The translations under genes were made by a program, and so were the position numbers. Of a stretch of DNA of 64,000 nucleotides, positions 22,301 to 60,091 are shown in pieces. The stretch covers positions 5,337,244 through 5,401,243 of the forward strand of contig CM082597.2 in assembly GCA_040954595.2 (NCBI GenBank), read 5' to 3'. The notes below the pieces were generated by a model. The model worked only from the letters and a program-made list of their open reading frames with translations, made no database searches and was not told where the DNA came from. Origin of the DNA: Balanoglossus misakiensis (Eukaryota; Animalia; Hemichordata). How positions within the stretch are numbered: position 1 is the stretch's first letter; each line of letters starts with the position of its first letter.

Positions 22301-25300
22301 GTTGAAAAATGTATAAAGCGATATTTTCCTTGCTACAAATGAGAGATAGCATGAATAAATTGAATCTTCTAAGCCTCGGCACTCAGAGTGATTATATTGA
22401 AAACCTGGCGAATGTATTGTAAAACACATAAATATCCCCCATTTAAATGAAATTGGCTTACAAAACAATATATTTTCGCAAAAATACCGTTTTTTTCTTG
22501 CAATTGCATTTAAACACATTTCCAATAAGCTTTACTTTAAGAGAAAAAATCATTCAGACAGTGGGCAAAGATCAGATGGTACTAGATTCATTCATTCATT
22601 AGACGATGGTGACTCGTGTTCTACTTACGTGGTCACAAGTTCTTTCAAAATGAGGAAATTATATATACCGCTATGATCATAGAATTGTTTCTAGTGAACA
22701 TACAGAATCGTATATTCATTGTCACAACAAGAGCTCATTATCAATAGAAGGTTGTATGTCTGTTAATGCAAATGTTTCCAAACCTTGTTTCTTTTTCTTG
22801 AGTTTTTTCTTCTTTCTCCGTTTTGTGCCCTCATCTGTACCACCACTTGGGTTCCCTGCAGACCCAGAAGCTACTGGCTCTTTATCATCGTCATCCCTTT
22901 GTTGCTTTTCTAATGAATTGAAACGAAGGAAATAGAATCACTTAGGATACAAGGAGTGCACGAAAATTTCGTATCTGTGTGGATGTTGCACTTTCTGATT
23001 TGACAGTGTAAGACCTTTTCATACAATTCAGCTCATTTTTGATAACATGTTCTGTCTTTCCCCTCTATGAAGATGCAGTTATTAAACCCAATATGCATCA
23101 AATGTAGAGAAAGTTAGCAAAGTCAACGTATATATTTTGTTACCGTGAGCAAAGTAATTGTATATGTATATACTGGTTCAAAAGAGTTAAGCTGCACAAG
23201 TTACAAACCTTCAACAACCTTCTTCCGTTTCTTTCCACCTTTCCGCTTTTTACCGTCAGACGTCCCAGGGGTGGGATTTCCGGGATTTCCGTCGCTTTCA
23301 ACATTAACATCTTCATCCATCTGCTCCGCTGCATAAATACAAAATCATCAAATAGTAGATCATAAGGAAATGGTAAACAATCACCACATCTAGTGTCCTA
23401 TCACAGGATTTGCAGTAAACGTTCGGACTAAGTGGTTGGACAACATTTATACATAGATGAACGCCATGTATAACATTTACACAAAATGGCAACTATGACT
23501 CAGTTATAACACAGGTAAATGACAGAATACTTTTTGGAAGAGTGTATATATAGCAAACCTTGTTTTGCCTTCTTGCGTTTCTTCTTCTTTTTGCGTTTTG
23601 CAGTCTCGCCCTTACTACCACTGGTTTTCTCCACTTCATCTGGTTCATTTACGTCATCATCCTTAGGTTGTTGCTCTGAAAACAAATAACATAAATCATT
23701 GAACAAACGGTAGATCATAGCACGAGTATTAAGCGAACGTTTTCACTACAAATGTTTTGTAGTTTTACAAGTGACCATACGTGACTCAAATCCACATTGT
23801 CACAACGTTAGCTTTGTATTACTATGATGCTGAATGTCTGATAATACTAATGTTTCCAAACCTTGTTTCTTTTTCTTCAGTTTTTTCTTCTTTCTCCGTT
23901 TTCTGCCTTCAGCTGTACCACCGCTTGGGTTCCCTACAGACCCAGAAGCTACTGGCTCTTTGTCATCATTGTTCTTGTCATGCTTTTCTAATTAATTGAA
24001 AGGACATAAGTAGAATCACCAGGGATACAATGCGTGAATTCGTGATTTAATAATGAGAAATTGTAATTATGTTTCTTCCCGATATTGGTCTTCGTAATGA
24101 GACTTGTCTGTACCCTACAGCTCAATTGTCTCCAGGACACACAATGCTTAGCAGGAAACACGCAACACGTTTTTAAATTATTAAACCAAATACGTACACA
24201 TTTAAAATTATTGTTCGGGAAATATTCCAAAGCTGGAGTCAAAATAGCGACCAGGATTCAGCTATTTAATATAGAAACCTCGGACAACTATTTAAAAGAT
24301 TGTACACTGTGACAAACCTTCTTGTACAGTCTCGCCTTCACCGTCACTTTTATTCTCTACTACATCCGGTTCATTTACATGTACGTCATCTCCTTGAAGT
24401 TGATCCTCTGAAAACAAATGCATAAAACATTCAATGTAGTAGTATGTACAAGAACATGTGGTGAGTTTTACTTCTAGCTCCATTTTCAATACTGACCTCA
24501 TCTTCCATACCGTGTTTCTCAGTAAACTGTAGTATAGTAAACAGAAAGCATCGTGCAGTGTCTAGACAACTACCTTTAGTTACATATTAAGATACATCTT
24601 ATAAGTAGCTCCACCACCAAGTAAGTTTGCATTGTGCAAATTTGCTTCTGCTTCGGATCAAACGGAATTTGGAATTATGACTAGACATTAAATAACACCA
24701 TATTTCAATTATGATACTGCTGGCAGTGTTGATGACGAAGACAAAAATACGTACACATGTTAGTAATAAACTTCATGTGGCAAATATATCTTGCAATTGT
24801 TCAGTGCACACAGATTAAGGTTCGTGAAGTACAATAATCTGACTGACAACGATAATAGTTATAATAATATTATTTGACAGATCTGTGTCTTTTTACCTGA
24901 CTGTAATTCCTGCATTTCTTGATATGGCTCTACCACTTCGTTGAACAAATGCTTCATTTCGTCATTCACTTTGAGCGTCTGGACGCGAAGTTCCTCTCTG
25001 ATCTCAAGTGATATTCCAAGGAACATCTGGTACTTGTTCACCACCTCGACAATTCTCTTCCTCAGGGCGTCCGGTTGGACGTCCATGTCGACTTCCACTT
25101 GATCAACGAAGAGAGGAAGGTATTCCTCAACAACATGATGTGATGGTGAGCCTCTGGGAATGACAGTGGGAATTCCAAGCGCCATCGCAGTGAGTGCAAC
25201 ATCGATAGAATTGACTGACGTCGGGGGTACCACTACCAATTGGGCAGACTGTAGTTCTCTGATGATGTCACTATTTGCAGATGGAAACTCCTGGTAAAGT

Positions 25301-27582
25301 ATGCGAAGTCTGGCGAGTGCCTTAAGACGTTCCTTTAATTTGTGTTTATTGACTTCGGAGACGCCCAGGATTTTCCATTTCAGAGGATATCTAAAATGCC
25401 CATGGAATAAATTAGCCACATTGTTCATAGCCTCTGCGATGATGCTGTTACTGTCCAATTCGGCGATGTCATAATCGTCAACGAGTGTCAGAATCGTAAA
25501 GCTGCCACTCTCCGGAACGAATCTTGGCGCGCTGTGTTTGAAAAGTTCCTCGTCAGGTGTTTTTAACAATTTGTAATGTCGAAATGCAAGGTCACTGTGC
25601 TGAAACCGGACTGAATAATGATCAAATAGGTAGGAGCCAACGGAGAATACGGCTTTGGCATTTTTGCTTTCATCTTCTAGCGATGCCTTAAACAGCTGAA
25701 ACTTCTCTCTTTCACATCCGATGACAATCGGTGGAATATCCAAGGAATATGGGTTGACCACATAGAACGAAGCTTTGGGAAAGATGTTTTCTTTGTGGAC
25801 GTGTGAGGCAGGGTGTGACGTCACCAGACCAAATCCATACACCATTTGGACGTTTGGGATGTCAAGCAGATCTTGGTAGTAAAGCGTCGGATTGAACAGC
25901 CAGTGATTTGTGGGAGTTTCATATTTGAATTGTTTTGGCGGTGTGGGAAATACTAACTTAACTCCCATCTTCTTTGCGTCCTCTTGATTTGCGTCGGTTA
26001 CTCGTAAGGCAGTACAGCACACTTGTATGCCTAGCGCTCGCAACTGACGAACGAGAACTGATATGGCAGCAGGAATGCCCCCAGTGATTGGCCAGCCAAA
26101 ATTCTCACTCAATATCAAAGCGACTGCTGGATTATCCTCATCCCTAAGAAGAAACAAAATACAAGAAATTAAATAATCGCCATAAAGGTGTTCTTCTGTT
26201 CTAAGTTGAGGAAGAAGCACCCGCACCCATTAATCTCTTGTTAGATAATCAATTTGAAACATTCCTTATTAGGAACAAAGATGTGTACTGCCGATTACCT
26301 TGTTGTTACCGGTAAAATAAAAGTGGTACTTTTCACAGGCAATATGTAAATGAGATAAAATAGTCCCAGTTGAAAGTGTGTTAAAATGGCTAGCTTAAGT
26401 CATCTTATTATATATCCTTAATTATTATGAATAATACTAATAAGATATACAAGCATGCATCACGCGTATTATTAGTTTTTTTTTCAGGCCTATTTCAGTA
26501 CGGAACGACGCAAACTAGTCACTTGGTCAGTAAATAATGTTAAGGGCGAGATGTATTTTGACAACTGTTTATGCAAATGAGTATATAAGTGGGACTACTT
26601 TCTCTTCGTAAACAATGAACGTCAAGAACATGGTATGCAACGTAATATAGTGGAGCTGTAATTATTAACGACATTTCTACTTGAAATGTTTTGTTTTGAT
26701 GTGAAATAGTTTTTATGATAAAGGTCAATTCACCCAGTTGACTGAGTTGTCTCCGTCTGAATACATAAGTGGGCTACTTGAGTATGTCAGACACCATTTG
26801 ATAAATGACACACATGGATCACGTGTGATAGGGGGACTGGACAATGACACGATCTGGGTGTGAGAGATGGCGCCTAAAAGACTAGGTGAACCAATTGGCG
26901 TGTGTTCATCATTTTTGGAGGATATTTTGTGGCCATGTATGGATGTGAAATGTTACAATTCTCATCCATATTGAGATGACACACGGATAGTAATATCTCA
27001 ATGACTTGGATTGTTGAAAATGATTGACAATTACTACACATGTATCGCTCCAGGCAGAAACTTAGTATGCTTACAGTGTGCCAGTAAGCTGATTAAACCG
27101 AAACTTCGAACTTTACATAAATTATTTCAAGTTTTTCTTGTATTTGCATATAATTTATTTGCGGTGACGCTTGTTACACTACCGAAAAGGATCACTGAAT
27201 ATAACACACCAGTTGAGGTGCAAAATAGATTTCCAATCTTTAACGGCCATTCGCATTCGCGGTTGCCCTATATATCGCTATAACACTATGTTCAGAGGCC
27301 TAAATATTAATTTCAAATCTTAACATTCTAATGGGAGATTTAAAAAAGGTTATTACTTGTATTACTTTTAATATTAAACGTACCGAGGTTCAGAAAGCTT
27401 TACATCTGTTTATCTCATATGAGTGATTCTTCATCGTTTTAGAATAACTGTCGCACATTTGCAATAACTAATTTTTCCACGTACCTGAAGTCTCGGCCTG
27501 AGCTTGTAGACATGCTCGGATCTCTGTGAGGTCCATAGGGAACAACGGCGTGACTGGTTTGGCTTGGATTTGCGCTGGCCAT
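15581..27582 (-). CDS. Multidomain putative immune protein (~1418 aa, 17 coding exons): degenerate GT4/GT-B glycosyltransferase-like domain, 12 charged micro-exon repeats, TRADD-N-like domain, helical linker, NHL beta-propeller
   Basis: Exon 1 27582-27485 (caaaATGG; MASANPSQTSHAVVPYGPHRDPSMSTSSGRDF, phase 2). Exon 2 26143-24897 (GT4-like: GGIPAAISVLVRQL, AKAVFSVG, AQLVVVP...AMALGIPTVI). Micro-exons 24407-24318, 23987-23862, 23675-23559, 23328-23209, 22909-22784, 22207-22091, 21875-21789, 21631-21530, 21380-21267, 21167-21060, 20671-20561, 20279-20181. Then 19587-19210 (GCLTFVMTCRSLEAADALWDAFTSGWL), 18951-18520 and 16365-15581 (NHL: PLGLVITPDGDVVVCDPGNERIQ, PTGVCVCNHGNVYVADYG, PWGICCDQNDNIYVCD). 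Exons join as one open frame (4257 nt). Domain names come from motif recognition, not HMM hits. Confidence 0.8.
16480..17880. repeat. Tandem satellite, ~144-bp unit, about 10 copies, in the intron upstream of the NHL exon
   Basis: 'ccatggaaac' recurs at ~16541, 16686, 16831, 16975, 17120, 17263, 17400, 17542, 17685 and 17825. Confidence 0.92.
19210..19587 (-). CDS. Exon encoding a TRADD-N-like domain
   Basis: Pattern G-C/S-L-x-h-x-h-x-C-x-S-L-x-x-x-x-x-L-W-x-x-F/Y-x-S-G-x-L...L-x-x-I-G...L-x-x-x-I-x-x-x-E-Y-x-x-C-R-x-x-L, typical of TRADD-N-like domains in invertebrate NLR-type proteins; phase 1-1 exon. Confidence 0.72.
19714..20071. mobile_element. TTAA-flanked MITE with ~60-bp TIRs (Kolobok-like)
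   Basis: ttaaaggggaagtccggtctaggtgatttctacataatttggtagctttga...cactctttca mirrored by tgaaagagtgacctcaaagctaccaaattatgtagaaatcagctggatcggatttcccgtttaa. Confidence 0.8.
24897..26143 (-). CDS. Large exon: family-4 glycosyltransferase-like (GT-B fold) domain with degenerate catalytic motif
   Basis: N-terminal GG-helix motif, DAKKMGVKLV, WL, AKAVFSVG, WKILGV and LQSAQLVVVP...VALTAMALGIPTVIPRGS align by eye with the conflict-type GT4 domains of invertebrate NLR-like proteins. Confidence 0.75.
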
Positions 27583-29887: not shown

Positions 29888-32178
29888 ATGGGTGCTACAC
29901 CATCCAAGGTCAGTATTTTATCCAAAACAATACTAGTATTCAACGTAAACATAGAAATATCTATCAGGCCGTCTGCATGCAGTTGACATAGCGCCGCGCA
30001 GTGTACACGTGGCTCTCACGGATTCGACACGTCTTTCGGTTTGACCATCTATAAAGATGCTTGGGGCTTGCAGTGTAGACCTATCACTAGTTTGCAGGTT
30101 TTTTTTGCAGGCAATGAAGACATCTATTTCTACAGATAATATTCGGGGCTTGTAATTCTTTACTATCAATCACGTGATCTGGCCATGTGACCCACGGCGT
30201 TGTCATTTCCAGGTGACGGGCAAGCAATATTTCGGCATCCAGTAAAAGTTTTTCCGAGTATGTTTTTACTTTAAAACCGCTAGACACGTAACATGTATCA
30301 TGTATTATGCCTTATCAGCCCCGTGGAATTTCGTTTGCACAGTCTTTGTCTGGACCACGTTGTGGAGGTTGCCCGTCATCTGGAAATTTGAATGCGAACG
30401 TAACTGCCGCCTGAGCGCGTCTGACGTCATTTGATATCGAAGAATATACACTTCTGTCTCAGAACCACGCACGGCCTCTACCGTGTATACTGTTTTACTT
30501 GTCGAGTTTCCACAGCGCGTTTTCACTTTCACTTGCAGTTGCAAATCTCTAGGCCTATACAAATACCCCCTTCGGCAAATATAATGACAATACAATGGAG
30601 AAATAACAAACAAATTGTAAGCACATGAAATTATTTTCCTATGGTTTCCAAATAATTTTCTTTAAAAAGTTCACGCTTGCTTATGGCGTAGAATTTTACC
30701 AAAATAGCCTCATGACATGAACTTGAATACATGGTAGATACTATTTTAGTTACAGGCTGCCATGGACCAGTTTTACGCTGACGAGGTAGATATTTCTTAC
30801 GTAAGGATGGAAACAGCCAGGAAAGTCGTCCAGAGAATAGAGGCCATTTTGAAACCGAAGCTGGCTGAGCTGCTCAAGGAAAGATACAATATAACCCTTG
30901 ACCCGACGTGGAAGTACACCGGAAGTGCGTATGAAGACCTGAAAGTGTGTGACCCGGATGAATTTGACATCATGCTGCCGTTCGATATGACCCATCACCT
31001 GACTAGACAGTCATGGGGCCTGTCCAGTTTGTTTTCCCTGTTTGCTGGCTCCCCTCAGCCTTCATCTGCATACCGATTTCTGCCCTCCGCCAGGGAAGGT
31101 TCCCCGTTCTCCGAGCCCAGGGGCGGTGACCGGATACTGCATTCTCAGAAGGTCATGAATGGTTTCCACAGCGTTCTGCAGAGAGCTGTGAATTCTGTGG
31201 ATTTCGGTGACGTCACAGTGTGGATTGGGAAAGATGGGCCTGCAATGAAAGTGGAGGCGAAATACAAAGACAGTAGTTACAGGCAACAGTATTTGAAGAT
31301 AGACCTCGTTCCTGCTGTATCAGATAATGGCACGTAAGTTTTGATTAGTGATCGTGCCTTTGTCGATTACATAAATTTAACAAGATAAGGTACGATTAAC
31401 GAAGTTCTGTAAATGACGTCAATTTCAAGTGCTGCCTGTTTCATTATACCATTTTACCACATTTTATCCAATGTAGTTAAACCCTATCAATGAAATAATT
31501 AAATATATAAATAAATTGACTACTTGATTAATAATTAAATAAAGTAAATTCATTCATTCATTCATTCATTCATTCATTCATTCATTCATTCATTCATTCA
31601 TTCATTCGCCCAGACATTTATATTAACTATTTTATCTTATTGGTTGTCCGACAGTATTTTTCATGTTTTGACTGATGAAGAGTGAATTTCGAAACAGTTC
31701 GAAGGTAATTTCATTCTGATCCTCTCATTGTCCTAGATACTACGTGGCAAAGCCTAACAAGTACGACACTTCAGAGGGCGCCATTGGAAAGTGGCGGGTG
31801 TCCTTCTCGGATAAAGAGAAGCAGAAAATCAAAGATGCTGGAGAGGGAAGAAGAAAGATACTGAAATTGGCGAAAGCGTTCTACAAGAAAGACGCCCCCT
31901 TGGCAAGACTGGATTCGTATTATTTGAAAACGGTGTTTCTGCACATGTTGGATAAATATCCCGGATATTGGACGGACACTGGGGAGTATTTCACCAAGTT
32001 CCTGGAGATGCTTCTTGCGTTTCTGCGAGATGGCAATCTACCCATGTATTTCATGCCAGCCCACAATCTGATTGAGCATTTTATTAAAGATGATATTCGA
32101 CGGGAAAATATTATTCGCCGCTTGGAGCGAATCTTGCGGAAAGGGGAAGATGAGTTCATTAAAATAACACAGCGTTGA
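29888..32178 (+). CDS. cGAS-like receptor / Mab21-family nucleotidyltransferase, copy A (~348 aa); predicted N-myristoylated; intact active site
   Basis: Exons 29888-29908 (MGATPSK|gtcagt), 30750-31333 (LQAAMDQFY...YTGSAYEDLKVCDPDEFDIM...GPAM...LKIDLVPAV), 31737-32178 (YYVAK...WRVSFS...LDSYYLKTVFLH...GNLPMYFMPAHNLI). Phases 0 and 2 are consistent. Confidence 0.9.
30154..30446 (+). repeat. ~290-bp segment duplicated at 33194-33496, containing an E-box, a CRE and an internal inverted repeat
   Basis: Direct sequence match between the two copies. CACGTG at 30171/33211; TGACGTCA at 30422/33472; atttccag(g/a)tgacgggcaa / ttgcccgtcatctggaaat inverted pair. Confidence 0.85.
30519..30534 (-). promoter_or_regulatory. 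ISRE/IRF-E-like element AAGTGAAAGTGAAAAC in cGLR-A intron 1
   Basis: Matches the AANNGAAANNGAAA IRF consensus; function not tested. Confidence 0.5.
31549..31607. repeat. (TCAT)n microsatellite in cGLR-A intron 2
   Basis: Read directly from the sequence. Confidence 0.95.
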
Positions 32179-33193: not shown

Positions 33194-33496
33194 AATTCTT
33201 TACTATCAATCACGTGATCTGGCAATGTACCCCATGGCGCAGTCATTTCCAGATGATGGGCAAGCAATATTTCGGCATCCAGTAAAAGTTTTTCCGAGTA
33301 TGTTTTTACTTTAGAACCGCCAGACACATAACATGTATCGGGTATGTTGCCTCATCAGCCTCATTGCATTTCGTCTGCACAGTCTTTGTCTGCACCACGT
33401 AAGTCCACGTTGCTGAAGTTGCCCGTCATCTGGAAATTTGAATGCGAACGCAACTGCCACCTGAGCGCGTCTGACGTCATTTGATGGCGAAGAATA
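33194..33496 (+). repeat. Second copy of the 30154-30446 segment, upstream of cGLR-B exon 1
   Basis: Direct sequence match. Confidence 0.85.
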
Positions 33497-33736: not shown

Positions 33737-36615
33737 ATGGGAGCACAACAGTCTCAGGTAAGGTTCCGAATTACAGGAGACGAATTTAGTCTTCTGCGGC
33801 TTTACTGCTTTGTTCTATACTAATTATTCTGTCGCATTAACGTCGGTATGGTGTTGACACTTTGCTGTTGCTGTGTGTGGTTAGTTAAGGGGTAAATTCA
33901 TCTTCGCCCGCCAAGGTCTTGCTCTCGAACGGGCCAACGACCCGTGCGAGCAAGAAAATGGGTTTACTTTTATCGCTACGTGTTTCATAGGTATGTAGTA
34001 TCATGTCAAAGTACTGTTAACGTTTGCTCCTTTCAGTCTGCGTAGTCTGACCTAAGACTTCCATATCGATTGAGAGTATGTAAATATAACTGCATTCACA
34101 ATCTGGCTGTAGCCTAAGGTGAAAACCATTTGATTTTGGGGGATATACTTTTTTTGGAGGGGGGATTTGTTGATAGATGGTGCAGTGGGAAAAAAATCGG
34201 CAATGTCTTGAGAGAAAAAAAATGTAGGACTGGCAGTAGAAAAAATGATACGCTGTAACTGACTGAAAAACTATTGCTGACATACACAAATCTTCCACGC
34301 ACCCCTCAGAAATCAAACGGTCCTCCCCTAATGTTGTCATTCGTAGGCACATACGTTAACCGTTGTGATTTTTCGGAATGCCTGTGATCTGTGAGGCTGT
34401 GTATGTCGTGTAGAGACACCGCCAGTGAAGGACGCATTTTTGCATATATTTTCTTTCACTCACGGTACTCAGACGCGAGCGCCGACAGGATGATTTTAGA
34501 AACATATGGAGAAACTGATAAGTTTATCTCAATTTTGAGAGGCGTTGTGCTGACGTGGCTGTCATAGTAAATGTCGACTCCCCCTGTTGCAGGTGATTTG
34601 GTGACGTGACCCTACCAGTTTATCACATATTGCTGATATACAGGTCTAAAGTCCATCCCATTAGCTCTGGCTAGCCATAGGCCACCATGTTTGTTTGAAC
34701 GTTGCCGGTTTATACCGAATTGAATACATAACGACATGCTGAAACGCAGGGTTAAAGGTATTCGGTCACTTCTTATTTACATATGTCTAAATATGGTCAA
34801 AAGGATGTGTCTAAGTCATCGAATGACCATACAGTGGTGCATAATATTTTTCGCGTGTGCAAAGCCACTGAAAGTCTGCGATTTAAATTAATTTTCTTTC
34901 ATTCAAAGTATTTATTTAGTCTCGAGTAGGAATACAAAATACCCATTGCGAATATCTTCACCGCAGCGCATGTAGCCTACACACTCGACAGATGTATCAT
35001 TTTTGTTTTGGTTTGTTTTGGTTTTGTGTGGTTTGGTTTGGTTTGGTTTGGTTTGGTTTGGTTTGGTTAAACAATGACAGAAATACAACATTCTCCCTAA
35101 GTACAACGAATACTAATCGTTTTGTACGCATTTTATCGGTATACAATTATCCTAAAATAGTTCCAACCGTGTTATGTGTTATATTATCTTTCGCAGGGTG
35201 CGCAGTCTGAAAGCCAACGTTCACCGCTGCAGGTTGCGTTGGACGAGTATTACGACAACCGAGTGGATATTCCACAGTGGCGAATGGATGCCGCCAAGCA
35301 AGTGGTGGAGGAGGTTGAGGAGAAACTAAAGCCAGAGATCGAGAGATTGCTGCAAGAGAAATACAATGTACCCACTCAGGCCTGGGAGTATACCGGAAGT
35401 GCGTATGAAGACTTGAAAGTGATTGCCCCGGACGAGTTTGATATAATGATACCATTTGACATGGCCAATCATTTTACACTCATAGGTGGAGTAGCTCAAT
35501 TCGTCGATAGCATCGCTTCGGTTGTTTCATTATTTACGGAACACAAACCTGAAATATCGGCATATGAATATTTACCGCTCGCGAAGGAAGACTCGCCGTT
35601 TTGCAAGGTGCGAGGTGGCGGCCACGTGCTGGATTCGGAGGAGGTCATGAAGAAATTCCAGAGTGTTATATCACTCGCTGTAAATGCAGTAAGGCTAAGG
35701 GGAGAGTTACGCCACATGAAAATCCGGACTGGACAATCTGGACCTGCTGTCAAAATTGACATCACGTACAATGATGACCAAACCCTGAAGATTGACCTCG
35801 TTCCGGCCGTCACCCTTCACGCCAGGTAAACGTGGCACAAGGTTATAGCTGTCTAAGTATGGCGTGTAATTTTGGCTTTTCTTGGTGAAGAAATTAGAAC
35901 AAAACTGTAATTGAGAAACATAAATATACTAGCCAAAGTTTCAAAGCTAATGGACCTTTAACCCTCATGACAATTGAAACATTTTCAATAACTTCCAAAC
36001 CCCATTATCGCTGTCCCCGTGTACCCGGAATGTAACAGTTGACGTGTGCCTTCAAAAAATATAATGCCGAGAACATAAATTTAAGATAATGTCCCCGGTA
36101 ATTAACTCGACACTCTTTCTTTTTGCAGAAATTATGTGGCAAAATCTGATAAATATGACGAAACGGAGGGCGCCAAGTCAAAATGGCGGATATCCAACTC
36201 AACTGAAGAGAAGCTAAAGATTCTTTTAGCCGGAGAAGAGAAAACGAAGGTACTGAAGCTAGCCAAAGCGTTCTGCAAGGAACCATTGAACGCTCCATTG
36301 GCCGGGCTCGATTCTTACTATCTCAAGACGGTGTTTCTCCATATGTTGACGAAGTATCCCGAGTCTTGGACCGACACTGGAGAATATTTCATCAAATTTC
36401 TCGAAGAGCTTCTCGGGCACCTAAGAGAGGAGCGCCTACCCATGTATTCTTTGGAATCCCATAATCTGATTCGTCATTTTGTGACGAGCCCCGACAGTCA
36501 CGTGGCTAACATGATAGGATACCTTCAGGGGCTGTTACGTAACGCGCAACATGGCGGTGACCAATTGGTCAATAAACTGAATGCGGTCACACCGGAAACG
36601 GCCAATTTCTGGTAA
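33737..36615 (+). CDS. cGAS-like receptor / Mab21-family nucleotidyltransferase, copy B (~378 aa); predicted N-myristoylated; intact acidic triad
   Basis: Exons 33737-33757 (MGAQQSQ|gtaagg), 35197-35825 (GAQSESQRSPLQVALDEYY...YTGSAYEDLKVIAPDEFDIM...SGPAV...LKIDLVPAV), 36129-36615 (NYVAK...WRISNS...LDSYYLKTVFLH...LPMYSLESHNLI). AATAAA at ~36840. Confidence 0.9.
35000..35067. repeat. (GGTTT)n microsatellite in cGLR-B intron 1
   Basis: Read directly from the sequence. Confidence 0.9.
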
Positions 36616-36902: not shown

Positions 36903-36982
36903 GAAAATGAAAGAGAAAGCCATGACACGGTGTAGTGTACGCATGCGCACGTTATTCAACTGCGCCGAACGGGGGAATCCCC
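36903..36982 (+). promoter_or_regulatory. cGLR-C promoter: triple-GAAA ISRE-like element and palindromic NF-kB site
   Basis: GAAAATGAAAGAGAAAGC at 36903-36920; NRF1-like GCATGCGCA at ~36941; GGGGAATCCCC at 36972-36982. All lie within ~220 bp of the ATG at 37119. Confidence 0.6.
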
Positions 36983-37118
36983 GGCCCCAGAAGGCACGCC
37001 GGATAAAACCAAACGCGGACACGGAGTTCGTTTTCCCATCTTGATTTCATAAAATACAACGTACACTTGACATTGTCGCGTTACAAGGTGACCTACATCC
37101 CAAACTAGCATATACCCA

Positions 37119-38502
37119 ATGGCTATGCCGCGTGTTTTCGTGGCCGTCGTCATGGCAGCGGTCTTAGCAGTCACCGCGGTAAACGGTCGCACGTCAGATC
37201 AGCAAAGAACTATACAGTCAAAGGTAGGTAACACCAAGGCTAACCCATTAATGCTTGCGTTATTTGCCTGCCAAGCCGCAAGCTAGCCTAACTGTTGAGA
37301 ACAGCTGGATTGGACGGAATGATTGTAATCAAGAAAATACGCACATGCGCATAAGACGATCGTCGGCCTTCAAATTCAGCATACTGTGTACATGTACATG
37401 CATGGATAATGGGCTCACTAATTGTGTGCTTCATACTTCATGTTTCAGTTGCAGATTGAGCTAGACGAGTTCTATGACAAACAGGTAAACATTCCCACCG
37501 CAAGGATGAAAGCTGCACAGAAAATCGTCGCCGAACTAGAGGCCAAATTGAAACCAAAACTAAAAGAGCTGCTCCAGGAAAGATACTACGTGACCCTGGC
37601 CCAGACATGGGAGTATACCGGAAGTGCGTATGAAGACCTGAAAGTGTGTGACCCGGATGAATTTGATATCATGCTGCCGTTTGATATGACCCATCATCTG
37701 AACAGACCAACCCGGCGATATTCGGTCTTGACGTCAGCGACGTCTTCCTATTGTCCACCACTTACCAGCGCGTACAACTTCCTGCGGTCCGCCAACAGTT
37801 CCTCGACATTCTCAAGATTGCATGGTGGCGACCATACGCTGGATTCTCAGAAGGTCATGAATGGTTTCCACAGCGTTCTGCAGAGGGCTGTGAATTCTGT
37901 GGATTTCGGTGACGTCACAGTGTGGATTGGGAAAGATGGGCCTGCGATGAAAGTGGAGGCGAAATACACAGACAGAGATAAACGACAAAACTATTTGAAG
38001 ATTGATTTGGTTCCTGCTGTGTTTGACTGCGACAGGTAATGTTAATATTAGTCGAGTATCTAGTTGTGTGTTGGCCACTTTGATTCCAAAACTAAAGTAT
38101 AGCCATGAGCGTGCCGCCGGCCCATTAAAACTGGTTACCCCTTGCTGGGAATTGTGATGTAACTAACTTGAGGTCAATCACATAATCTGAACACTGTTGA
38201 TTTGGTGTAAGATTATTGTGAAGGTAGGGCTAATAACATAGAAAATCTTACCCATCCTTATCATATAACCGAATCAATGGAACAAATCTTTGATAGACTT
38301 CAAAGGGATGTCAGATACATCACATTTCCCAGTGCCGACGCTAAATCAATTACATATATACAGAATGTATTCTCATTTGTCATTCCCTGTCCACTTAGAA
38401 ACGTTTAAATTTGAATTCCATCATACAGACGTGATGTCGACTGGAACACTGCAATACTTTCCTGTTGTGCGCAGATTACTGAATGATGACAGAACGCAGA
38501 CG

Positions 38503-38548
<46 letters not shown>

Positions 38549-39067
38549 TCTCTCTCATATACGGAGCCTAAAATAGGGCAAAAAATACCCAAGCTTCCAT
38601 TTTCTTTCAGATTCTATGTGACCAAGTCCGACAGATATGATACCGCTGAGGGCGCCAGTTCAAAATGGCGGCTATCGTTCTCTGACTCTGAGAAGAAGAC
38701 AATCAACAAGCTTACAGCGAACAAACGAGACAATAAAAAGAAGATATATAAGATGGTTAAAGCATTCTGCAAAAAAGATGCGCCATTAGCGAGGCTTGAT
38801 TCTTATTATTTAAAGAACATATTTCTGCATATGGCAACTAAGTATCCCGGATATTGGACGGACAGTGGCGAATATTTTACCAAATTCCTTGAAGAGCTTC
38901 TTGCCTTCCTGAAGACCGGAAATCTACCCATGTATTTCATGCCAACTCACAATCTGATCGGAACTTTCGTGAAAAATAATCCGGGGACTGTAGCAAATAT
39001 CGTAAACCGCTTACAGAGATTACTTAAAAGAGGGGATGATGAACTAATAAAGATTCTGCAACGCTAA
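37119..39067 (+). CDS. cGAS-like receptor / Mab21-family nucleotidyltransferase, copy C (~382 aa); N-terminal signal peptide; intact active site
   Basis: Exons 37119-37223 (MAMPRVFVAVVMAAVLAVTAVNGRTSDQQRTIQSK|gtaggt), 37449-38035 (LQIELDEFY...YTGSAYEDLKVCDPDEFDIM...LKIDLVPAV), 38611-39067 (FYVTK...WRLSFS...LDSYYLKNIFLH...GNLPMYFMPTHNLI). Confidence 0.9.
38505..38556. repeat. (CT)n microsatellite in cGLR-C intron 2
   Basis: Read directly; explains the LSLSLS run in ORFs 38290 and 38483. Confidence 0.95.
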
Positions 39068-40615
39068 TAAGAGGTCACGAACAAACAGTACAGGATTCTC
39101 AAAGCAGAGTTATGATAGACACGGTAGTAAAAAAACAATTGAAGCACCTTTGCGGTATACAAAGCAAGGATACGAAAACAGCAAAATATGAGGAAATTCC
39201 TTACTGAAGAGCTGTATTATATAAACTATGTAAAAAACGATAGAACTATTGTAAATTTCATGAAGTATATATGTGTAACATATATCCTGTATTTTTATAA
39301 AAAGAAAAAGGTAAAAAAACAAGAGAGAGAGAGAGAGAGACGACATTGTGTGTAGCCCAGCTTTTTACCATCGCTTTCTAAAAATAGATTTTACAAACGA
39401 CAGTGGAATCGGCCCAGCATCGAGGTCTGGGCGAGGTATAATTTCCTACCACGGTATTCAGCACATGGCGAACAGTTTATTTCACTATTTCAGTGTGTCA
39501 ACTATGAAACGATTGATTCACAACCCGGTGTGTGTGTGATAAAATTGCAGACAGACTTCAGGAATTAGGAAGGCTAAGCCAATTTCCTGACTCTGTTGAC
39601 AACCTACTGCAGCTATGTGATATACCGTGCAATGTCGAGCTCACACGACAGACAGTCATGCACCACTCAATACAACCAACATATGCAGCTATTATGGTCG
39701 ATTATCTTTCCATATCGACATATGTTCAAGGCTGGTGCCTCTTGCATTTACATGTAGATATCTTTTACAGGGTGGGGCAGATTGGTTGCTGTAGTAACTC
39801 TGCTGCCAATTATTACAGAGAACATTTCCCCGGCTAGCAACAAACTGTGCGTTGTAATATACACGAACTGGGTACCTGATATTGATATTTTATCATCAGT
39901 TTCAAAATAATGTTCAAAGTGCGTGTCTGCCACATTTTGCTATTTCATTATCCGGGTGTTATTACTGGACTGAAATTATGGCATGGCTTTGAACCATATG
40001 ACCATTCCTAAAATTAACACCTTTACTACGATCCTCCATCATGACCACACAAAAACATGATCAACGACCTTTGCAGGGCGTTCCACTGTGATACCATGGC
40101 CAGGTTATCAATTAGCGCAACAGGTGCGTCCGAGAATAGAATTATATTTATTTCGCTCCTATCCAATGGCGGGTCCCGCGCATGCGTCCCAGCTGGCGGT
40201 GCTGCTGGCATCTGTGCGTCTGAGTATAGCGCTTCATCACAGATGTGCGTTGCCGCTGACAGAACTCTGAAATTGTAGACTGCTGTCACGTCAACGGGGT
40301 ACAGGACGATCTATTTAACAAGGTATGAGCATATGCATGATAGGAAAGAAATTCAGGGAAGCGAGTCACGATTCTGTGCGTTTGATAAACAGTTTGACTG
40401 TTTTTCTAACTTGTGACGTTTTTTATTCATCTTGACATTTGCAAATGAACTCAAATATTACAATTACTGTTGTCCATTCTGAGGTGTAACTGCAGGAAGC
40501 TGTATGTCACACTGCAAACCAGCATTTCTATTGCCATCGACTGTGTGAGACAGGGGTCATTTAAAGTGAGCCAAAGTTCCGTTGTATTATTTCAGATTTT
40601 GGACAAACTATCAAC

Positions 40616-43600
40616 ATGTGGGAGATTGCAGTTGGCGTGATATTAGGGATAATTATCCTATTTATATTAGGTGCACGAAGACCAAGGAAGGTAAATGAAA
40701 TAATATTTGCTTTGATGGTATATTCAAATTGGCCGAATAGGATGTTTCAATGTTGAGTAAATAACTTGCCATATCCTCAGCTTGTGATGTTTCGACATTT
40801 TGACTTTTATTTTTGACCCATCAACAATGCGATTCATGCAACCTTCCACAAATGTAGATATGCAAATTTGCTTTTAGAAGAATAATGGCGTCAGAGGACA
40901 TTCGGGCGTTGTCAAACAGGGGTTATTCTGTCATTTTACAGGAAAAAAATGAACGCAACCAATTGTGAATTCGAATCCCCATCCTACCACTTTGGGTGCT
41001 TATGTTTTCACCATCATTTTTTATGCGAAATCATTTTACACTAACCTTTGCATAATGCGACGTGCGAACCAAATGTTGGTAATACGCCAGTTCCTATTAA
41101 TAGCCACCCGTACATAAAATATCAAATATAAACACGGCCACAATGCCAGTATTAATTATGCATATCAATGCAATTTCACCTCACTACGCGGTTACACTGT
41201 AGAGGATGATGTCTGTGCCACGCCCTAATACCACACATCCAGGGGTGTCTGTGAGTCCGCGATAATGTAAAGTGAAATGTTTTCAGCGCGCCATTTGTAA
41301 AGGTCACGAAGTGGTTATGGTTGGGCATGATGATAATACTGGTATGGCCAGGATGAAAATAAGGTTCAAAGACGCCGATTGATAAAAATCCCACATTAAA
41401 TAAGTCAACTCTGATATGTTGTCATGTTAATAATAACATGTCATATACAATTCTGAGATGGGTAGTGAATTACCTGTTTATATCATGAATTCTGCGTGTG
41501 TTTTCGCACTGTAAAAATTGTAGCGGCGGTATTACGTCACTTCCGTGGTATTTGGTATTCAAATGGGATCTGTGACATTTGGTCGGCAGAAACTCCCTCG
41601 TGGGGCAATGGCCAGGAATGCCCTGGGGCAAGCTACCAGAAGTTTTTCCTTTCTGCAGGGTTTAGAGTGGACAGAGGTCTCGCGTTGCAAACCTACGAGA
41701 GTTGTAAACCCACGACATCTGTACTTGCGATTGATTGAAAATGAGTCAGGAATGAAAGGAAGGTTACGGAAAATAGGGGTTTAGGGTCACGAGAGGAAGA
41801 GTGGTATACATGTCCCTATGCTTATGTGTTAGTCAAATGACACAAAGTGAGCTATATCGGTCTCTAGGTCACTTGTTTACCTTTTTTGATGGAAATTCTA
41901 TATTTGGCCAAAATGGGTTTTATATATGAACAGATGATGTCAGGGTAATTGTCATTCCAACTGCATGCAGTGTGCTATATTTCACTGTGGGTAAATAAAA
42001 TTGGTTTTAATGGTTAAATATTCTTGTTGTCATATGCACACTGTGCGTTTGTTATTTGTTGATTACTGGAAGAAACAGAGCCGAGAAATAAAAAAAAATC
42101 TCAGGCCTTACAAAATCTAGCATGTTGTATGTCAATAATTTTCATAGATGATATATGTTTATTGTAGTTGGAACAGACTTTGAAGGCGTTCTTCAGGAAA
42201 GAAGTCTACGTGTCCGAAAAGGAACTGAAGTTTGCGAAGACACAGGTGGACTTGGTGATTGATAAAATCAAACTAAAGCTGAAAGATCTCTTCTCCGAGA
42301 GGTACGGGATAAATCTGAACGATGATTGGATTAAGACCGGAAGTGCTTTCGATGGGCTGCAGGTCAAGGCCCCGGATGCGTTCGAAATCTTGGTGGAGCT
42401 GGACATTTGGCACGACCAGTCCGCCCTCTTTGTGATATCCCAGGTGGCGTCGGCGGACATGTCCGGGTACGACTTCATCAAAGTGTCCGGCGGCAGCGGG
42501 AGCCTCTCCGAGATGGTCCTGGGCGAGGGCACCGTCTTCCACTCGCAGAAGGTCTTGCACGGATTCCAGGGCGTGCTGCAGAAGGCGGTGGGCGAGCTCG
42601 ACGAGGAGAAGTCGCTGGTGACAGAGATGGACGGCAGCACGCTGAGGGTCGTCTGGAAGTATGTGGACAAGCGTGGACGAGACAAGACGCTGAAGTTAGA
42701 ATTGATACCGTGTGTGTGTTCAAACAAACGGTAATGGTTTCTGCTTGTGATTTGATAATATTGTTTTATGTTGAAGTAACACAACGGGAAAAATGTTAAA
42801 ACTGAAAAATATGTGTATTTGGATATTAAGCTTAACGCTAAAGCGAAGGACAGAAATAACCCACTACATGCATAATTGATGGGTGTTAATTGACGTACTA
42901 GCAATTCGAGTCTTGCTGGTATGCATGCATTATTGTACGATAAATGCCAGATAAAAATGAAGTCAACTCATACCATCTCATATTTTCCGGAGAAGCACAT
43001 CTCTCAAGGGCCTATAGACTTTTCCCATAATTTTTTACTATACAACTACTTACCATGTAATCGCTGTGTCCACACTTTGATATTCTTTGACATTATTTTT
43101 CCACCCGGTTTGTGGGCCGTGAACGTGTTTTTACTTTCGACAATTTTCCAAATTTAAAGTTTTATTTCTCTTTATAAATTTCTCACTTGTTCATGAATCA
43201 CAGGTACTACATAGCCAAGCCTGACGTCTTCGACGAGAAAGAGGGGACGGTCGGGAAATGGAAGATCGCCTTGCTGGACAAGGAAAGGGAAAAGTTCAAG
43301 AAAGTGACGGAGGGCAAGCGAAGAGTCTTGAAACTGGCCGTCGGTTTCTGTAAGAAAGACGAGAGCTTGGCCTGGATCAACCACAACCACTTGAAGACGG
43401 TGTTCCTTCACATGATGGACACCGTGCCGGGGGCTTGGAAGGAGAGCGACGACTACTTCAAGTTGCTCCTTGAGTACCTCCTCGATTATCTCCGCGAGGG
43501 CAACCTTCCGGACTACTTCATCCGCAAGCGCAACCTCTTCTTGAACTTCGCGCACGCGCACCCGCAGACCATGGAGAACGCGTCTGCGCGTCTGCGCTTC

Positions 43601-43738
43601 ATCCTCAGAAGCGGGAACGACGAGATCATGCGAGTAATTCGCGGGCCGCTGTATCGGTGGCCGTGGTCTAGGCGGGAGTATCGCCCCCAAATAATGCCGC
43701 TGCGCAAAACGGCTGATCTTAGCGTGTGGCATAAATAA
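40616..43738 (+). CDS. cGAS-like / Mab21-family protein, copy D (~390 aa); N-terminal signal-anchor helix; degenerate active site (probable pseudoenzyme)
   Basis: Exons 40616-40690 (MWEIAVGVILGIIILFILGARRPRK|gtaaat; acceptor at 40595 and a likely 5' UTR exon ending at 40322), 42168-42730 (LEQTLKAFF...KTGSAFDGLQVKAPDAFEIL...LKLELIPC), 43204-43738 (YYIAK...WKIALL...WINHNHLKTVFLH...GNLPDYFIRKRNLF). Intron positions and phases are the same as in A-C. Confidence 0.85.
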
Positions 43739-49800: not shown

Positions 49801-52184
49801 TGTTTTCTTCCCAGTGTAAAATTGCTTTATATTTATTAATGTTTAGTTGTAATAATTAAAAGTTTCCATAAGCAATGAAATAACGTGTGGTGTGCCTATT
49901 GTTGACCGTCTTTGTTGCGTGCTGCGCTGGTTGGTTCACCAAAGCGAGCCATTCAGTAAGTCTATTTGCTCACTGCCCTGTTTCGGAACTGAACGGCCAG
50001 CGTGTCGTAACAATGTATTCACACCAGGTCCGGCACCATCTGTAAAATATTTCATTTTCTAATCATTATTCTATTATTTTGTCTTTTCTGTTCAGTCATG
50101 GTGTTCGCAACAACACCGATATTGCTCTCGGTGGCGGCATTTCTTCCCTGTCGCAAAGGCTGGATTGGATACAAGAATAAATGCTATCTCTTTCAACACG
50201 ATGACCTGGTCACATGGAAAGAAGCCCGCACCCGATGCAAGAGAACTCCGGGGGCAGATTTAGTGGTTTACGACTGCGTGGATGTCAGAAAGTAAGCGCA
50301 TTTCCACACTCGCTCCATTTCCGTTCCTCGACAATCAAAAAGTACAGCTGTAGCCGTTCAGAGAGTTTTACGACGATGGTCAGTTAAATAGATAGTTTGG
50401 CTCATCTGGCAGAGATGCATATGTCTGTCAACTGAAAAACTTACAAATAAGTGGATTTCTGGAGAGAAAAACCACAAATAATCTTAATAATTCCCTTTTA
50501 GTGCATGCCATGTTTTTGATGGAAAATTACCTATCAGTGGCGATCAATTATTGTGGAAGACTAGATAGAAACTGTTACGATGTCCATGATGTAATAATTA
50601 GGCCGGTGACACGCTTTTATCATTTAGTCGTAATTGTAGTAGAGCACGTTCTACATAAATGCATAGCCATTCGGAAATGTGTTGTCCATATCAAGTATAT
50701 AACCCCAATTTGGTTAATAGTACATCACGATTTCTTTCGCCATGTTTTTTTTTTTTTTTGCTCAATGATACCACAGGGAGCCAAGATTGGGTGGTGAGGG
50801 TGGGGGGGGGTGTGTAGGGCACGCTGTCCAGCATTTGCCCCCGGTCATTAATGCACAATCTTTATTGTTTTAGTTTTGTCACCAGTAATCTCAACGACGA
50901 CAGTCATCTCTGGATCGGCATATACGTGAAAGTGGACGATTATGACTCGTTGATATATTACTGGGTTGATGACGTAGAGGTGAAACAATTCAACTGGGAA
51001 CTGGGTCAACCAGATAATTTATGGGGTAAGTTATCCTCAGACGAGTTGGCGGAGACATCTCTTTGCAAAAAGGTGATAAATCAGTGAAATTCGGGCCCCA
51101 GTTGGTGTAATAAATTAACATGAATTTAGGCTATGCTGACTAGAACACAGTAAGCTACTAAGGGGCACTGAATTCCCTAACACACCCACTGCAAATCTCG
51201 CAGACACGCAATGATCCCTGTATATATCCGAAGTGCGGTAATTCTCAGGTGGTGAATGTAGGTTGGGGTGGGCCATTTTGCATAACAATGTGTGTAGCTG
51301 GTGATATGCATGTGTTGTGTGGGGAGTTTCTAGATTTAATTGTTGCGTAACAATGCTTTGTGTCTGTGTCGACAAGAGGACACAAGTTCGTTTCTTTTAT
51401 TGAGTGTGGAAATTTCCGGGTTGCGAATGATAATAAATTTCTCTGTTAAGCAGAGGTTGCACTGTTTGGTTGCGCTGTTGTATGGCTTGGCTTTGGCTAA
51501 AATTTTCCATGAAATAGTGTGGGCGATGTCGTTGTCCTTCAGAGTCCAAATATGTTTGCTGAGTTCGGTGGAGTTCCTGGAGCGTACGAGTCGGAAAGAT
51601 GAAGTGTGGTTTCTGAATCTTGTTTTGAAGTCGTTCTCGGTTAGTCCGACATATGTATCCGAGGTGTTGTTGTCTGTGCGCGTAACTGTGGCCTGGTAGA
51701 TGACGGAGTTTTGGAGGCAGTTACCGTCGAGCGGGCATTTGTCCTTTTGTCGGCAGTTGCAAGTCTTGGCGTAGTCGGTCTCGTCTGTGTTGTTGTTGTG
51801 CGATTTCAAGATGCGTTTGTTGTGGTTGTCGATGATCTGCTTCGTGTTGTTCATACAGCTGTAGCTAATTTTCACCGTGTTCCTGTTGAATATTTTCTTG
51901 ATCTAGTATGTATGAAAAGAAAACATATCGGTTTTTAATGTTTCAGATTTCGAATTGTGTGTTGACGTTCACGGAGCCTCAACAAAACTTTCCATGCGAG
52001 GTGTTTGGCGAGATGAGACATGTACTGCAAAGCGAGGTTACATATGTCAGTATACTCGGGTATTAGGTAGGTACAACCACTACGCTATGGTACAACATTC
52101 AAATTTCCTCTCGGTGCACACATGCGTGATCTTAGCTTTTAAATATTGGTTGAATTCTTGCTTTCAGATATTGTAGACGATTGA
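46809..52184 (+). CDS. Secreted single-domain C-type lectin (~172 aa) with a QPD (galactose-type) motif
   Basis: Exons 46809-46842 (METVKIIVFTA), 50096-50291 (signal peptide end; CRKGWIGYKNKCYLF...TWKEARTRC...ADL), 50874-51025 (LWIG...FNWELGQPDN), 51947-52066 (ELCV...WRDETC...GYICQ), 52168-52184 (stop). AATAAA at 52415. Exon 1 is the least certain. Confidence 0.85.
49295..50012 (+). mobile_element. Solo LTR (718 bp) in lectin intron 1; the 4-bp target duplication fits a Gypsy-type element
   Basis: TGTTACG...CGTAACA inverted termini; identical ATGT flanks at 49291-49294 and 50013-50016; internal TATA-like ATATAAAA at ~49403-49410. Confidence 0.85.
51336..51900 (-). mobile_element. 5'-truncated Penelope-like retroelement (end of RT region plus GIY-YIG endonuclease) in lectin intron 3
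   Basis: ORF 51336-51875: KISYSCMNN...CNCRQKDKCPLDGNC...VIYQATV...YVGLTENDFKTRFRNH...STELSKHIW...CNLCLTEK...LNKRNELVSSCRH, typical of Penelope-like elements. The 3' tail probably extends toward ~51040. Confidence 0.88.
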
Positions 52185-57400: not shown

Positions 57401-60028
57401 GGGAACTTGAGTGTTTATAAGATATACATGTAGATGGTATAAGTCCAACGCCTTTATCAATGAGAGATCACTTCTTTCGGAAGAAGCTGCTTCTCGTTGG
57501 AACCTGTGTGAATGTGATGTCAGTATTTTTTTCCTTTAATAACACTGTTATTTTATTCTGGCGGTTCTTCAATTTGAAGACACAAATTATGTAGTTACAG
57601 GATGCGTTTACCTGAATAGATCGGTCTGAGCGTTGTAGACAGTAAACTCCAAAATGACTGCACGGGAACGAGTGTCCAACCAATGCGTCCTCTCAAGATA
57701 GTCCACCATGTCGTACGCCTTCTCAATCGTCGACCCGAACTCCGCTGTGTAGCCGCCACCGCCGTACCACGTGATGTGACCGTAGAGGGAGACCCCGTCA
57801 AGCTCATCGGCGGACGCGTACAGCCACGGCAGAGCGTAGGGGTTGTCGGGCTCCGTGAAGGACTGGTTGATAGGTGACCACGATTCCCCGTACTTTGTCC
57901 TGTCTTCGGTCGATGACATGTCGTAGTCTACCTCGCACTGTTTGACGTATTCCGACATGACCCCTGGTGCATTACACATTTCTGGAATGGATGTATGGAT
58001 GGATAGACAGAAGGGGAGAGAAACAAACACAAAGAAAGGCAGAATACAGAGACAAAGACAGAGAAACGGAGATATATATTAACGAAGTCAAACTAGGAAA
58101 TGGTTTTATTAACGTGACATCTTGAACTCCTGAACTGATGTGTGGAGAAAAGAGACCATGGATTTATAATGACTTTATTTGCATTTGAATAGTGAATTTA
58201 CCTTTTGACGATGAAGCCCCCTAGCTGGACGACTAAATGATCTGAACGTATCATGAACGTTTGTTTTTGTTGGCACCACTTATTAATTTACTTTTGAAGC
58301 ATATATAAATGCACTCTATTTCGAGTGTAACTCGAGTGCATTTCGAGTGTTTTAAAGTACTTTTCGTCGTACGAGGTCTCCTTCACTCCAATGTGTTCGA
58401 TAACAATGTAAAATCAAACCTGCCCACAGAGGCTAATCAAGGGACCTTAGTAAACCATTCTAGAAAGATCGATGGCCTTCACAGACAGGCCAATGAATGC
58501 ACATGTAAATTATACACATAGTATAGTCAACATGGAAGATTTTATCGGTTATGGTCTTTCTTCAGCACAGATAAGACCATTGTCAAATATAGTCATGGAA
58601 ACCTCTTTGTATTTACCTGGTTTTACACGCAGCTGTCTGAGTCGTGGCGGTCCAACACGATAGGCAATATGGTTGGCGATGTACCTTTTCTGCCTCCAGT
58701 GTAGCGCCTTGCCATTGTACAATTCTTCTGCATAGAGTGCCGGTATCGCCACTTCCCGGATGTACTCCAAGTACGTTCCGAAGCCAGTGTCAATCTACAT
58801 AAGTTGTACAAGACATATCTCATGTTAGAATGATAAACCTGTAGAACTGTCCTTTACTAGAATGGTCCATCTGATGGTAAACTCTATAGATCAAACTTAT
58901 ATTTTTTTTCAGCTTTGCCGCTATGACCCTGATATGGTCCAAGTGTCCACTTTCGAGTTGAGTATCCAATCAAATGAGCCCATAAATAGTTCATGGAATA
59001 GTTATATGGAAGAACATTCTCGTGTGACACACGACGAATAACACATATCTAATCTGTTATCTGTTAAACGACACAAAATATACAACTTTTGTTAAACTAA
59101 GCATATATCTAGTTTGTTAGTAGAGCGTTGCTACAGTTATTAACCAAGGTAAAAGGAAAATCATTAGTTGTTCGATATGAAAGAAATCAGCGAGAACCGA
59201 CGTATATACTCGCTTCTAAAAATCTACGGTATATAGCCATCTTACAATTCTATCGATCATGCCACATTGGCCTTTCTACCTCACTATACTATATTAGCAA
59301 AACTCTACTTAAGTTAGTGGGTATTGGGTTAGAATGTGTTCTTTATTATTGTTATGTTTACAAGCCAGTTAATTAATGTGAACGCTATTTCCGATGTAAT
59401 GACTTACTTCTTCCAAAGCGAAAGGACCGTCATCCTAAATATTCGAACACAAAAGTATAATGCGAAATGAAAATCAAACACAGAAACAAATACTTTACAG
59501 GTAAAATTATCGGAAATGCATTGAGAACTTGCAAATATGGAAACGATGTGCTTTGCATTTACAGAAAACCACAAGGTTGCCTTTGAACAACCATAATTTG
59601 CATACTTGTCCAGGTTAATGAATAATCCAGAAACTAATACCTTACCATATAAATATCGAAAATGCCTTGAACATAAAATGTGAAAAGCAAATCTAGACAT
59701 TTACAGTTGTCACTGAGAACTTGCAAATATCGACATGATAAAATAACTGCATAATTATCCAAGCTAGATGAATAATCCTCACCTTGCCAATGTAGGGCGT
59801 GTCGAAGAACAGATTGTCTAAATGCATGTGTTCATACCGTGACATCAGGTCACGTGCTCCATAGGCAATCAACAGCAGAATGGTCAGATAGAAACCATAG
59901 ACAAACATCTCTTTCAATACACCTTTCATTTTAACTTCTTTGAATCGCTTTCGTCTGGCTTTCTCCAAATCTTCAGGACTTACAGGATTTTCAAACTGTT
60001 GTGTGTCGTCAACTGTCACTATACCTGA

Positions 60029-60091
<63 letters not shown>

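Follow-up and report, generated by a model that had tools for sequence, protein, structure and literature searches.

Gene C in a tandem array of Mab-21 genes

The window analysed here, a 64,000-nucleotide stretch of the Balanoglossus misakiensis genome (assembly GCA_040954595.2, contig CM082597.2, positions 5,337,244 to 5,401,243 of the forward strand; all coordinates below refer to this stretch), carries four Mab-21 genes, A to D, arranged head to tail on the plus strand between 29888 and 43738. They have exons 2 and 3 in common, and their first exons differ. The third gene, C (37119-39067), had been described in an original prediction as encoding a catalytically intact enzyme resembling cyclic GMP-AMP synthase (cGAS) with a signal peptide. 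Gene C is a variant of a known family and not a new system. Judged from its sequence, gene C does combine a signal-like leader with an intact core, a feature that a second species likely shares.

Gene C comprises three exons, which join to a single open frame of 382 amino acids (aa) with GT/AG intron ends in phase 0 and then phase 2. Predicted coding exon 1 (37119-37223) contributes 35 codons, encodes a signal-peptide-like leader and ends at a phase-0 donor. A predicted intron of 225 bases (37224-37448) with a branch-like site at 37418 separates it from exon 2 (37449-38035), which encodes the Mab-21 nucleotidyltransferase domain; exon 3 (38611-39067) encodes the Mab-21 C-terminal helix bundle. 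The frame and splice consensus needed for the previously proposed three-exon model, with its predicted junction from 37223 to 37449, are present in the sequence. Both intron positions recur in the paralogues A, B and D, and the acceptor position and phase at exon 2 are conserved across all four array genes. Exon 1 has a GC content of 0.54 and an observed/expected CpG ratio of 1.43, compared with 0.44 and 0.73 for intron 1. No ATG was found upstream of exon 1 in 36980-37118; the absence of AATAAA and ATTAAA from 39068-40100, 3' of the gene, is neutral. On the strength of the open frame, the canonical splice sites and a conserved orthologue (see below), a pseudogene was rejected. Two alternative exon-1 donors were rejected, one at 37178 that is weak and in frame and would retain the leader, and one at 37227 that is out of frame.

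Between the stop codon of B and exon 2 of C, phase-0 candidate exons running from ATG to GT with a donor score of at least 7/9 against the consensus were confined to three nested starts, all ending at 37223. In Markov simulations of this 815-base region (n=3000), signal-like exons arose once when the donor had to reach 8/9 and three times when 7/9 sufficed. The identical exon-finding rule picked exon 1 of D (40616-40690), matching the annotated starts of two relatives. An ESM Atlas search with exon 1 of C alone returned no usable match. We consider it very probable that exon 1 is spliced onto exon 2.

Leader, catalytic core and fold

The leader calls given here stem from a heuristic of our own, built on hydrophobicity scales and a (-3,-1) rule, not from SignalP. 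By this heuristic, the N-terminus of C has a short basic n-region and an uncharged run of 16 residues (positions 6-21), in which the best stretch of 11 reaches a Kyte-Doolittle mean of 3.17; the (-3,-1) rule allows cleavage after A17, T19, A20, G23 and T25. This corresponds to the n-, h- and c-region layout of a signal peptide with small residues at -3 and -1 and no later transmembrane segment, and cleavage would likely take place after A20 or G23. A second hydrophobic 19-mer is absent from C and from its counterpart P0004 (best 0.77 and 0.92, respectively), and C has no retention tail for the endoplasmic reticulum (ER).

The nearest named relatives belong to Ptychodera flava and Glandiceps talaboti. 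Among them, P0004 of P. flava ('cGAS-like receptor 3 isoform X2'; RefSeq name 'cyclic GMP-AMP synthase-like receptor 3'), one isoform record among several (its cluster counts 4 members), shows 57% identical aa with C. The two proteins are sisters in the tree, with a support of 84 in the Shimodaira-Hasegawa-like approximate likelihood ratio test (SH-aLRT), inside a clade (97) that includes A, and by sequence P0004 is likely the orthologue of C. It starts with a hydrophobic run of 10 residues and has a (-3,-1) site after G29; as this run is too short, the P0004 leader does not resemble a membrane anchor. Summed Hessa values of the best 19-mer were unfavourable for C (+2.6) and P0004 (+4.8), whereas those of D and its relatives were favourable (about -1.0). 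Directly after the helix, three to four basic residues follow in D and its relatives, one in C and none in P0004.

Twelve residues are exclusive to C and P0004 among 12 array rows. They include two cysteines, the candidate disulfide partners C137 (37752-37754), whose surrounding loop is identical at 4/18 positions, and C229 (38028-38030), and the sequon residue Asn151 (N151-S-S, 37794-37802), which P0004 matches with N-G-S. This is the single sequon of C, where the original prediction had counted on 'NSS and similar sequons'. P0004 therefore resembles C in its signal-like leader, cysteine pair, sequon and acidic triad, and differs in a leader that cannot be aligned, in D-F-D instead of E-F-D and in an automatic name that is silent on secretion. 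Of the secreted or lumenal location proposed originally, entry into the secretory pathway is favoured by the P0004 leader, the shared sequon and cysteine pair, the lack of a second transmembrane segment and a leader unlike those of D and MiD51-type anchors. Given that exon 1 is spliced as predicted, translocation of C into the ER would on this evidence be quite probable.

The core motifs listed in the original prediction were all found: G93-S94, E106-F-D108, the third catalytic acid D221 in KIDLVP (38004-38006), and, in exon 3, WRLSFS at 250 and SYYLK at 295. C and P0004 agree at G93, S94, D108, D221, K236, W250, R251, K299 and Y339, with either E or D at position 106; the acids of P0004 read D-F-D with the third D kept, and the protein has its own substitutions. 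Pfam matches above the gathering cut-offs, to PF03281 (39 bits, cut-off 24.1) and PF20266 (58.6 bits), place C in the Mab-21/cGAS-like receptor (cGLR) superfamily. The first part of the cGLR motif of Li et al., h[QT]GS X8-20 [DE]h[DE]h, is present as Y91-T-G-S94, 11 residues and E106-F-D108-I. Because C agrees with the motif of Li et al. except in the spacing of the third acid, we call it cGLR-like and not a member of the curated set. The zinc thumb of cGAS proper is absent from C by a His/Cys pattern, with four cysteines, none of them clustered. The protein has a net charge of +14.

An AlphaFold model of C itself, restricted to exon 2, reached a predicted local distance difference test score (pLDDT) of 91.7 and a predicted template modelling score (pTM) of 0.85. 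The P0004 model (pTM 0.73) was compared with solved structures and matched MiD51 with Z 27.6 (root-mean-square deviation (rmsd) 3.0, 311 aligned residues), mouse cGAS (4O6A) with Z 26.8 (rmsd 3.2, 302 aligned, residues 34-380) and Tribolium cGLR (7LT2) with Z 25.4 (rmsd 3.4, 312 aligned). Foldseek likewise put MiD51 first for this model. Among PDB sequences, a profile of the array gave 51 matches with MiD51 among the top ones; exon 2 alone gave none at an expect value (E) of 0.01. For exon 3, a comparison with longer proteins gave 0/367 candidates. P0004 retrieved only Mab-21 clusters from the ESM Atlas. MiD51, the closest solved fold and tied with cGAS, had been missed in the original prediction.

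A search for representatives gave 1560 matches at E 0.001, of which the best 150 were taken; they include a MiD51-like clade of 39 rows. A quick tree was built from 129/156 rows, 27 having been dropped beforehand, including D of the window, P0009, P0010, P0015 and P0061. The array clade (97) was separate from the MiD51-like clade (100), which was labelled from Pfam PF21297 matches and contains no vertebrate MiD row. C scored 19 bits against MID51-like_C, below the cut-off of 27. On this score, the tree placement and an anchor profile (see below), MiD51 orthology of C was rejected.

The Mab-21 and Mab-21_C domains, the GS loop, three acids, WRLSFS and SYYLK are common to C, the cGLRs of animals and cGAS (Li et al., PMC9980059; 7LT2; 4O6A); C differs from the others in its signal-peptide-like leader, the lack of a zinc thumb and an acid spacing of 110 residues compared with the published 50-90. 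MiD51 and MiD49 (MIEF1/2) and the invertebrate MiD51-like proteins provide the best whole-length fold match, lack a zinc thumb like C and also have an N-terminal hydrophobic targeting segment; the short hairpin after the third acid strand is likewise common to C and this group. In contrast, C has no Gly/Ala-rich anchor followed by basic residues and lies outside the MiD51-like clade. In the MiD51 study (PMC3926961), MiD51 is anchored in the outer mitochondrial membrane with a cytosolic domain and lacks the catalytic acids except for one Asp, whereas C keeps the triad.

Gene conversion, paralogues and the rest of the window

Genes A and C are identical at 58/60 bases over residues 96-115 and at 59/60 over residues 176-195, while elsewhere about half of the third positions agree. 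Identical runs of 50, 43 and 59 bases lie within 30918-31243 in A and 37617-37945 in C. One tract is centred on the catalytic motif: the 50-base run coincides with the GS loop and E106-F-D108 of C (37617-37666, plus strand). The second tract (37843-37945) holds the runs of 43 and 59 bases. As read from the sequence, this near-identity is gene conversion between the two genes.

Genes A (29888-32178) and B (33737-36615) each have a predicted 7-codon exon 1 (29888-29908 and 33737-33757, respectively), an intact triad and an MG..S start, which we take to be a myristoylation pattern. Together with the predicted signal peptide of C and signal anchor of D, these starts suggest that the array swaps targeting exons between its members, a feature missed by the original prediction. 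In A (about 31010-31050) and B (35480-35535), the loop that follows the second acid strand is hydrophobic, with a best 19-mer of 1.71 in B, and could form a second membrane contact alongside the myristoyl group; its counterpart in C and P0004 is polar. Upstream of B, a signal-like candidate exon (33333-33398) lies inside a repeat of the sequence upstream of exon 2 of A and was taken as a chance match. At its start, the P. flava record P0006 contains the C-terminal portion of a different Mab-21 gene, and it is likely a gene model fusing two array neighbours.

Gene D (40616-43738) starts with a predicted signal anchor, a hydrophobic run of 17 residues followed by four basic residues in five. Its exon 1 (40616-40690) is identical at 17/25 positions to the start of P. 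flava P0007 and at 15/25 to that of Glandiceps P0008, and D appears as a conserved signal-anchored Mab-21 protein with 81% identity to P0007. The first catalytic acid is Ala in D and Glu in P0007 and P0008; loss of catalysis in D may therefore be recent.

Three promoter-like motifs were found 137-216 bases upstream of the ATG at 37119, using consensus patterns for IRF, NRF1 and kB sites that were chosen post hoc, which makes the shuffle counts flattering. A triple GAAA repeat (36903-36918, plus strand), resembling sites of interferon regulatory factors (IRF) and the interferon-stimulated response element, is the sole match in the 64-kb window (0.05 expected; reached in 5/100 shuffles). It is followed by an NRF1-like palindrome (36939-36948) lying in the predicted promoter, and by an NF-kB-like site (36971-36982), one of four such places in the window, which together give 9 overlapping matches against 3.55 expected (2/100 shuffles). 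Further NRF1-like sites, at 29349, 33631 and 40178, precede the first exons predicted for A, B and D, respectively, and across the window the pattern gave 18 strand-hits at 9 places compared with 1.65 expected. Two further kB-like sites, 77 bases apart, lie at 7273-7359. A bacterial-promoter scan, which is not applicable to animal DNA, found nothing.

Elsewhere in the window, pieces of a large gene on the minus strand (15581-26229) include a GT4-conflict glycosyltransferase domain (24859-26229) and NHL repeats (15581-16420), and possibly form one immune-type gene adjoining the array. Exons of a polycystin (PKD channel) gene were found at about 55766-61924 on the minus strand. A 188-codon open frame at 51336-51902, also on the minus strand, has no Pfam match at E 0.001 and by eye resembles a fragment of a retroelement endonuclease.

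In 12/145 further representatives, a hydrophobic 11-mer scoring at least 2.5 begins within residues 1-20. By eye, P0075, P0093, P0109 and P0136 combine cleavable-looking leaders with three acids; they are unnamed single predictions, to be taken as leads only, and fall in three clades, P0093 weakly beside the array (82). In P0109 and P0136 a Met lies just before the domain, so that their leaders could be annotation extensions. Many MiD51-like, apparently invertebrate proteins (P0018, P0022, P0023, P0036, P0038, P0039, P0059, P0082, P0097, P0144 and others) keep E-F-D or E-Y-D behind a Gly/Ala-rich anchor, a motif that other members of the group have lost. These sequences suggest that active, mitochondria-anchored MiD51 relatives occur among them.

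A proposed lumenal enzyme and its alternatives

Our preferred reading is that the product of gene C would be a lumenal or secreted and catalytically active nucleotidyltransferase, to which we assign a probability of roughly 0.5 from the sequence features described. In this reading, the first exon would act as a cleavable signal peptide, and C would be translocated into the ER and lose its leader there. The protein would be glycosylated at N151, form a disulfide between C137 and C229 and, having no retention tail, be secreted. Its activity would consist in linking nucleoside triphosphates to form a nucleotide signal. The gene itself would have arisen in the tandem array, with common exons 2 and 3 and different targeting exons.

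A number of observations weigh against this reading. The motif of Li et al. requires X50-90 before its h[DE]h, and C has 110 residues between the motifs (112 between D108 and D221); spacings of 104-119 were measured in all 7 array rows, the extra length being the loop after the second acid strand. The GS..EFD motif of C lies inside the conversion tract with A. As this tract is recent and shared, the intact motif is weaker evidence of selection on C, and the catalytic intactness claimed in the original prediction holds at the level of sequence only with this reservation. The exon filter was loose: across the whole window it let through 5/9 strong-donor candidates. Besides C and D, these were two membrane segments encoded by the polycystin-like gene and an unexplained one upstream of B. 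The start context of M1 is weak and that of M12 strong; an ATG at 37440, in frame, and an NRF1-like site at 37341 both lie within intron 1, which together make cytosolic isoforms possible. Alignment of the C leader with that of P0004 was no better than with shuffled sequence (1077/2000), leaving common descent of their first exons unsupported, and P0004 is itself a gene model. The conserved sequon is weak evidence, since presumably cytosol-facing paralogues also have sequons: one at 338 is common to D and both relatives, and others are present in each of A, B, P0005 and P0006. On a profile of MiD-type anchors, the C leader was the best non-member after P0061, at a non-significant 3.5 bits (E 0.57). 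Outside the cytosol, the supply of triphosphates other than ATP is doubtful.

C might be secreted without being a cyclic dinucleotide synthase, as a soluble nucleic-acid binder or decoy or as an enzyme transferring nucleotide or phosphate units to lumenal proteins or glycans, its motif perhaps kept partly by conversion from A, since a tract covers this motif. The literature offers precedents: FKRP uses a nucleotidyltransferase fold to attach ribitol phosphate in the Golgi (PMC6965139), secreted P26/poxins gained a nuclease-independent extracellular role (PMC9663721) and MiD51 shows the fold serving without catalysis (PMC3926961). FKRP and fukutin share with C the fold and the secretory pathway, but they belong to a different nucleotidyltransferase family, which puts ribitol phosphate on glycans in the Golgi (PMC6965139), and they are absent among the sequence and fold matches listed. 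P0004, however, keeps the acidic triad amid its own substitutions, C and P0004 keep the exon-3 pocket residues outside the tracts, and the fold is of the caged cGAS type, all of which makes a non-synthase rather unlikely.

If the leader were instead an uncleaved anchor, the enzyme would face the cytosol on the ER or the outer mitochondrial membrane, like MiD51 or D, and be equivalent to the myristoylated A and B. All three neighbours carry predicted cytosol-facing membrane signals, MiD51 is the top structural match (tied with cGAS) and also a top profile match, the C run of 16 residues is Ala/Val-rich, and P0061, an array-like fragment, has a MiD-type anchor (16.3 bits). The profile was built from 17 invertebrate MiD51-like anchors chosen by eye, scoring 36.8-63.3 bits by construction, and included no full-length vertebrate MiD. 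These anchors comprise 18-25 residues with 16-29% Gly and a mean hydropathy of 1.25-1.93, whereas the C run has no Gly and a mean of 2.89 and the run of P0004, of 10 residues, scored -1.8 bits. With the separation of the array and MiD51-like clades and the cysteine pair and sequon common to C and P0004, we regard an anchored enzyme as unlikely. Less probable again is an ordinary cytosolic cGLR with exon 1 unused or minor, its main product starting from M12 by leaky scanning or from the ATG at 37440 via an intron-1 promoter. The start contexts, the intronic ATG and NRF1-like site and the several isoforms of P0004 fit such a product; the acceptor position and phase conserved in all four genes, the promoter-like cluster before the ATG at 37119, the exon-like GC and CpG content of exon 1 and the signal-like leader of P0004 do not.

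The DANGER proteins D1A-C, D2B and D3A, which we take to be ITPRIP and ITPRIPL1/2, TMEM102 and MiD51, respectively, are presumably membrane-bound. Signal peptides on Mab-21 proteins were already predicted in 2007 (Nikolaidis et al., PMC1784063), a precedent that the original prediction missed. The DANGER proteins of that paper represent vertebrate lineages, with predictions made in the absence of a catalytic assay; C, by contrast, comes from an invertebrate, has an intact triad and lacks any membrane segment beyond its leader. The 10 Saccoglossus cGLRs of Li et al. have no such leader by eye, Ptychodera is absent from them, and 'signal peptide' has 0 occurrences in the main text and 6 supplementary files of the preprint (PMC9980059). 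A placozoan immunity paper (PMC6321704) was uninformative. The literature searched, with most subscription papers outside reach, brought up no secreted cGLR or Mab-21 enzyme whose active site is intact. In the text of Culbertson and Levin (PMC10732462), 'signal peptide', 'secreted' and 'lumen' have 0 occurrences.

In the usual view, cGAS and cGLRs do their sensing in the cytosol, and export of the product comes later. For a secreted, active C, transcription would be induced through the IRF- and NF-kB-like sites, and the basic surface of the protein would bind nucleic acid outside the cytosol, in body fluid, mucus or a phagosome. Released ATP and GTP would then serve C as substrates for a cyclic dinucleotide, and uptake by neighbouring cells would activate STING, of which the hemichordate Saccoglossus has one gene according to the supplement of Li et al. 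(PMC9980059). This whole chain, from extracellular nucleic-acid binding through a cyclic dinucleotide to STING in neighbouring cells, is the most speculative part of our proposal and rather doubtful. Also doubtful is the wider picture that the sequences allow. In it, acorn worms would have a secreted, infection-induced cGAS-like receptor that detects extracellular nucleic acid and makes an extracellular cyclic dinucleotide, serving as a cell-free source of an immunotransmitter; the array would cover four compartments through the exchange of first exons, and signal-peptide cGLRs would have several origins within animals (P0075, P0093, P0109, P0136).

Since the published cGLR screen (PMC9980059) trimmed sequences to the enzyme domain, leaders of this kind would fall into a blind spot, while 4/145 further representatives show similar ones. 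A and C, near-identical over GS..EFD yet with opposite targeting signals, offer a built-in comparison. If the preferred reading is true, a soluble secretory-pathway enzyme whose active site is intact would shift either sensing or the making of the messenger into the lumen or out of the cell, or would reveal a new chemistry for this fold.
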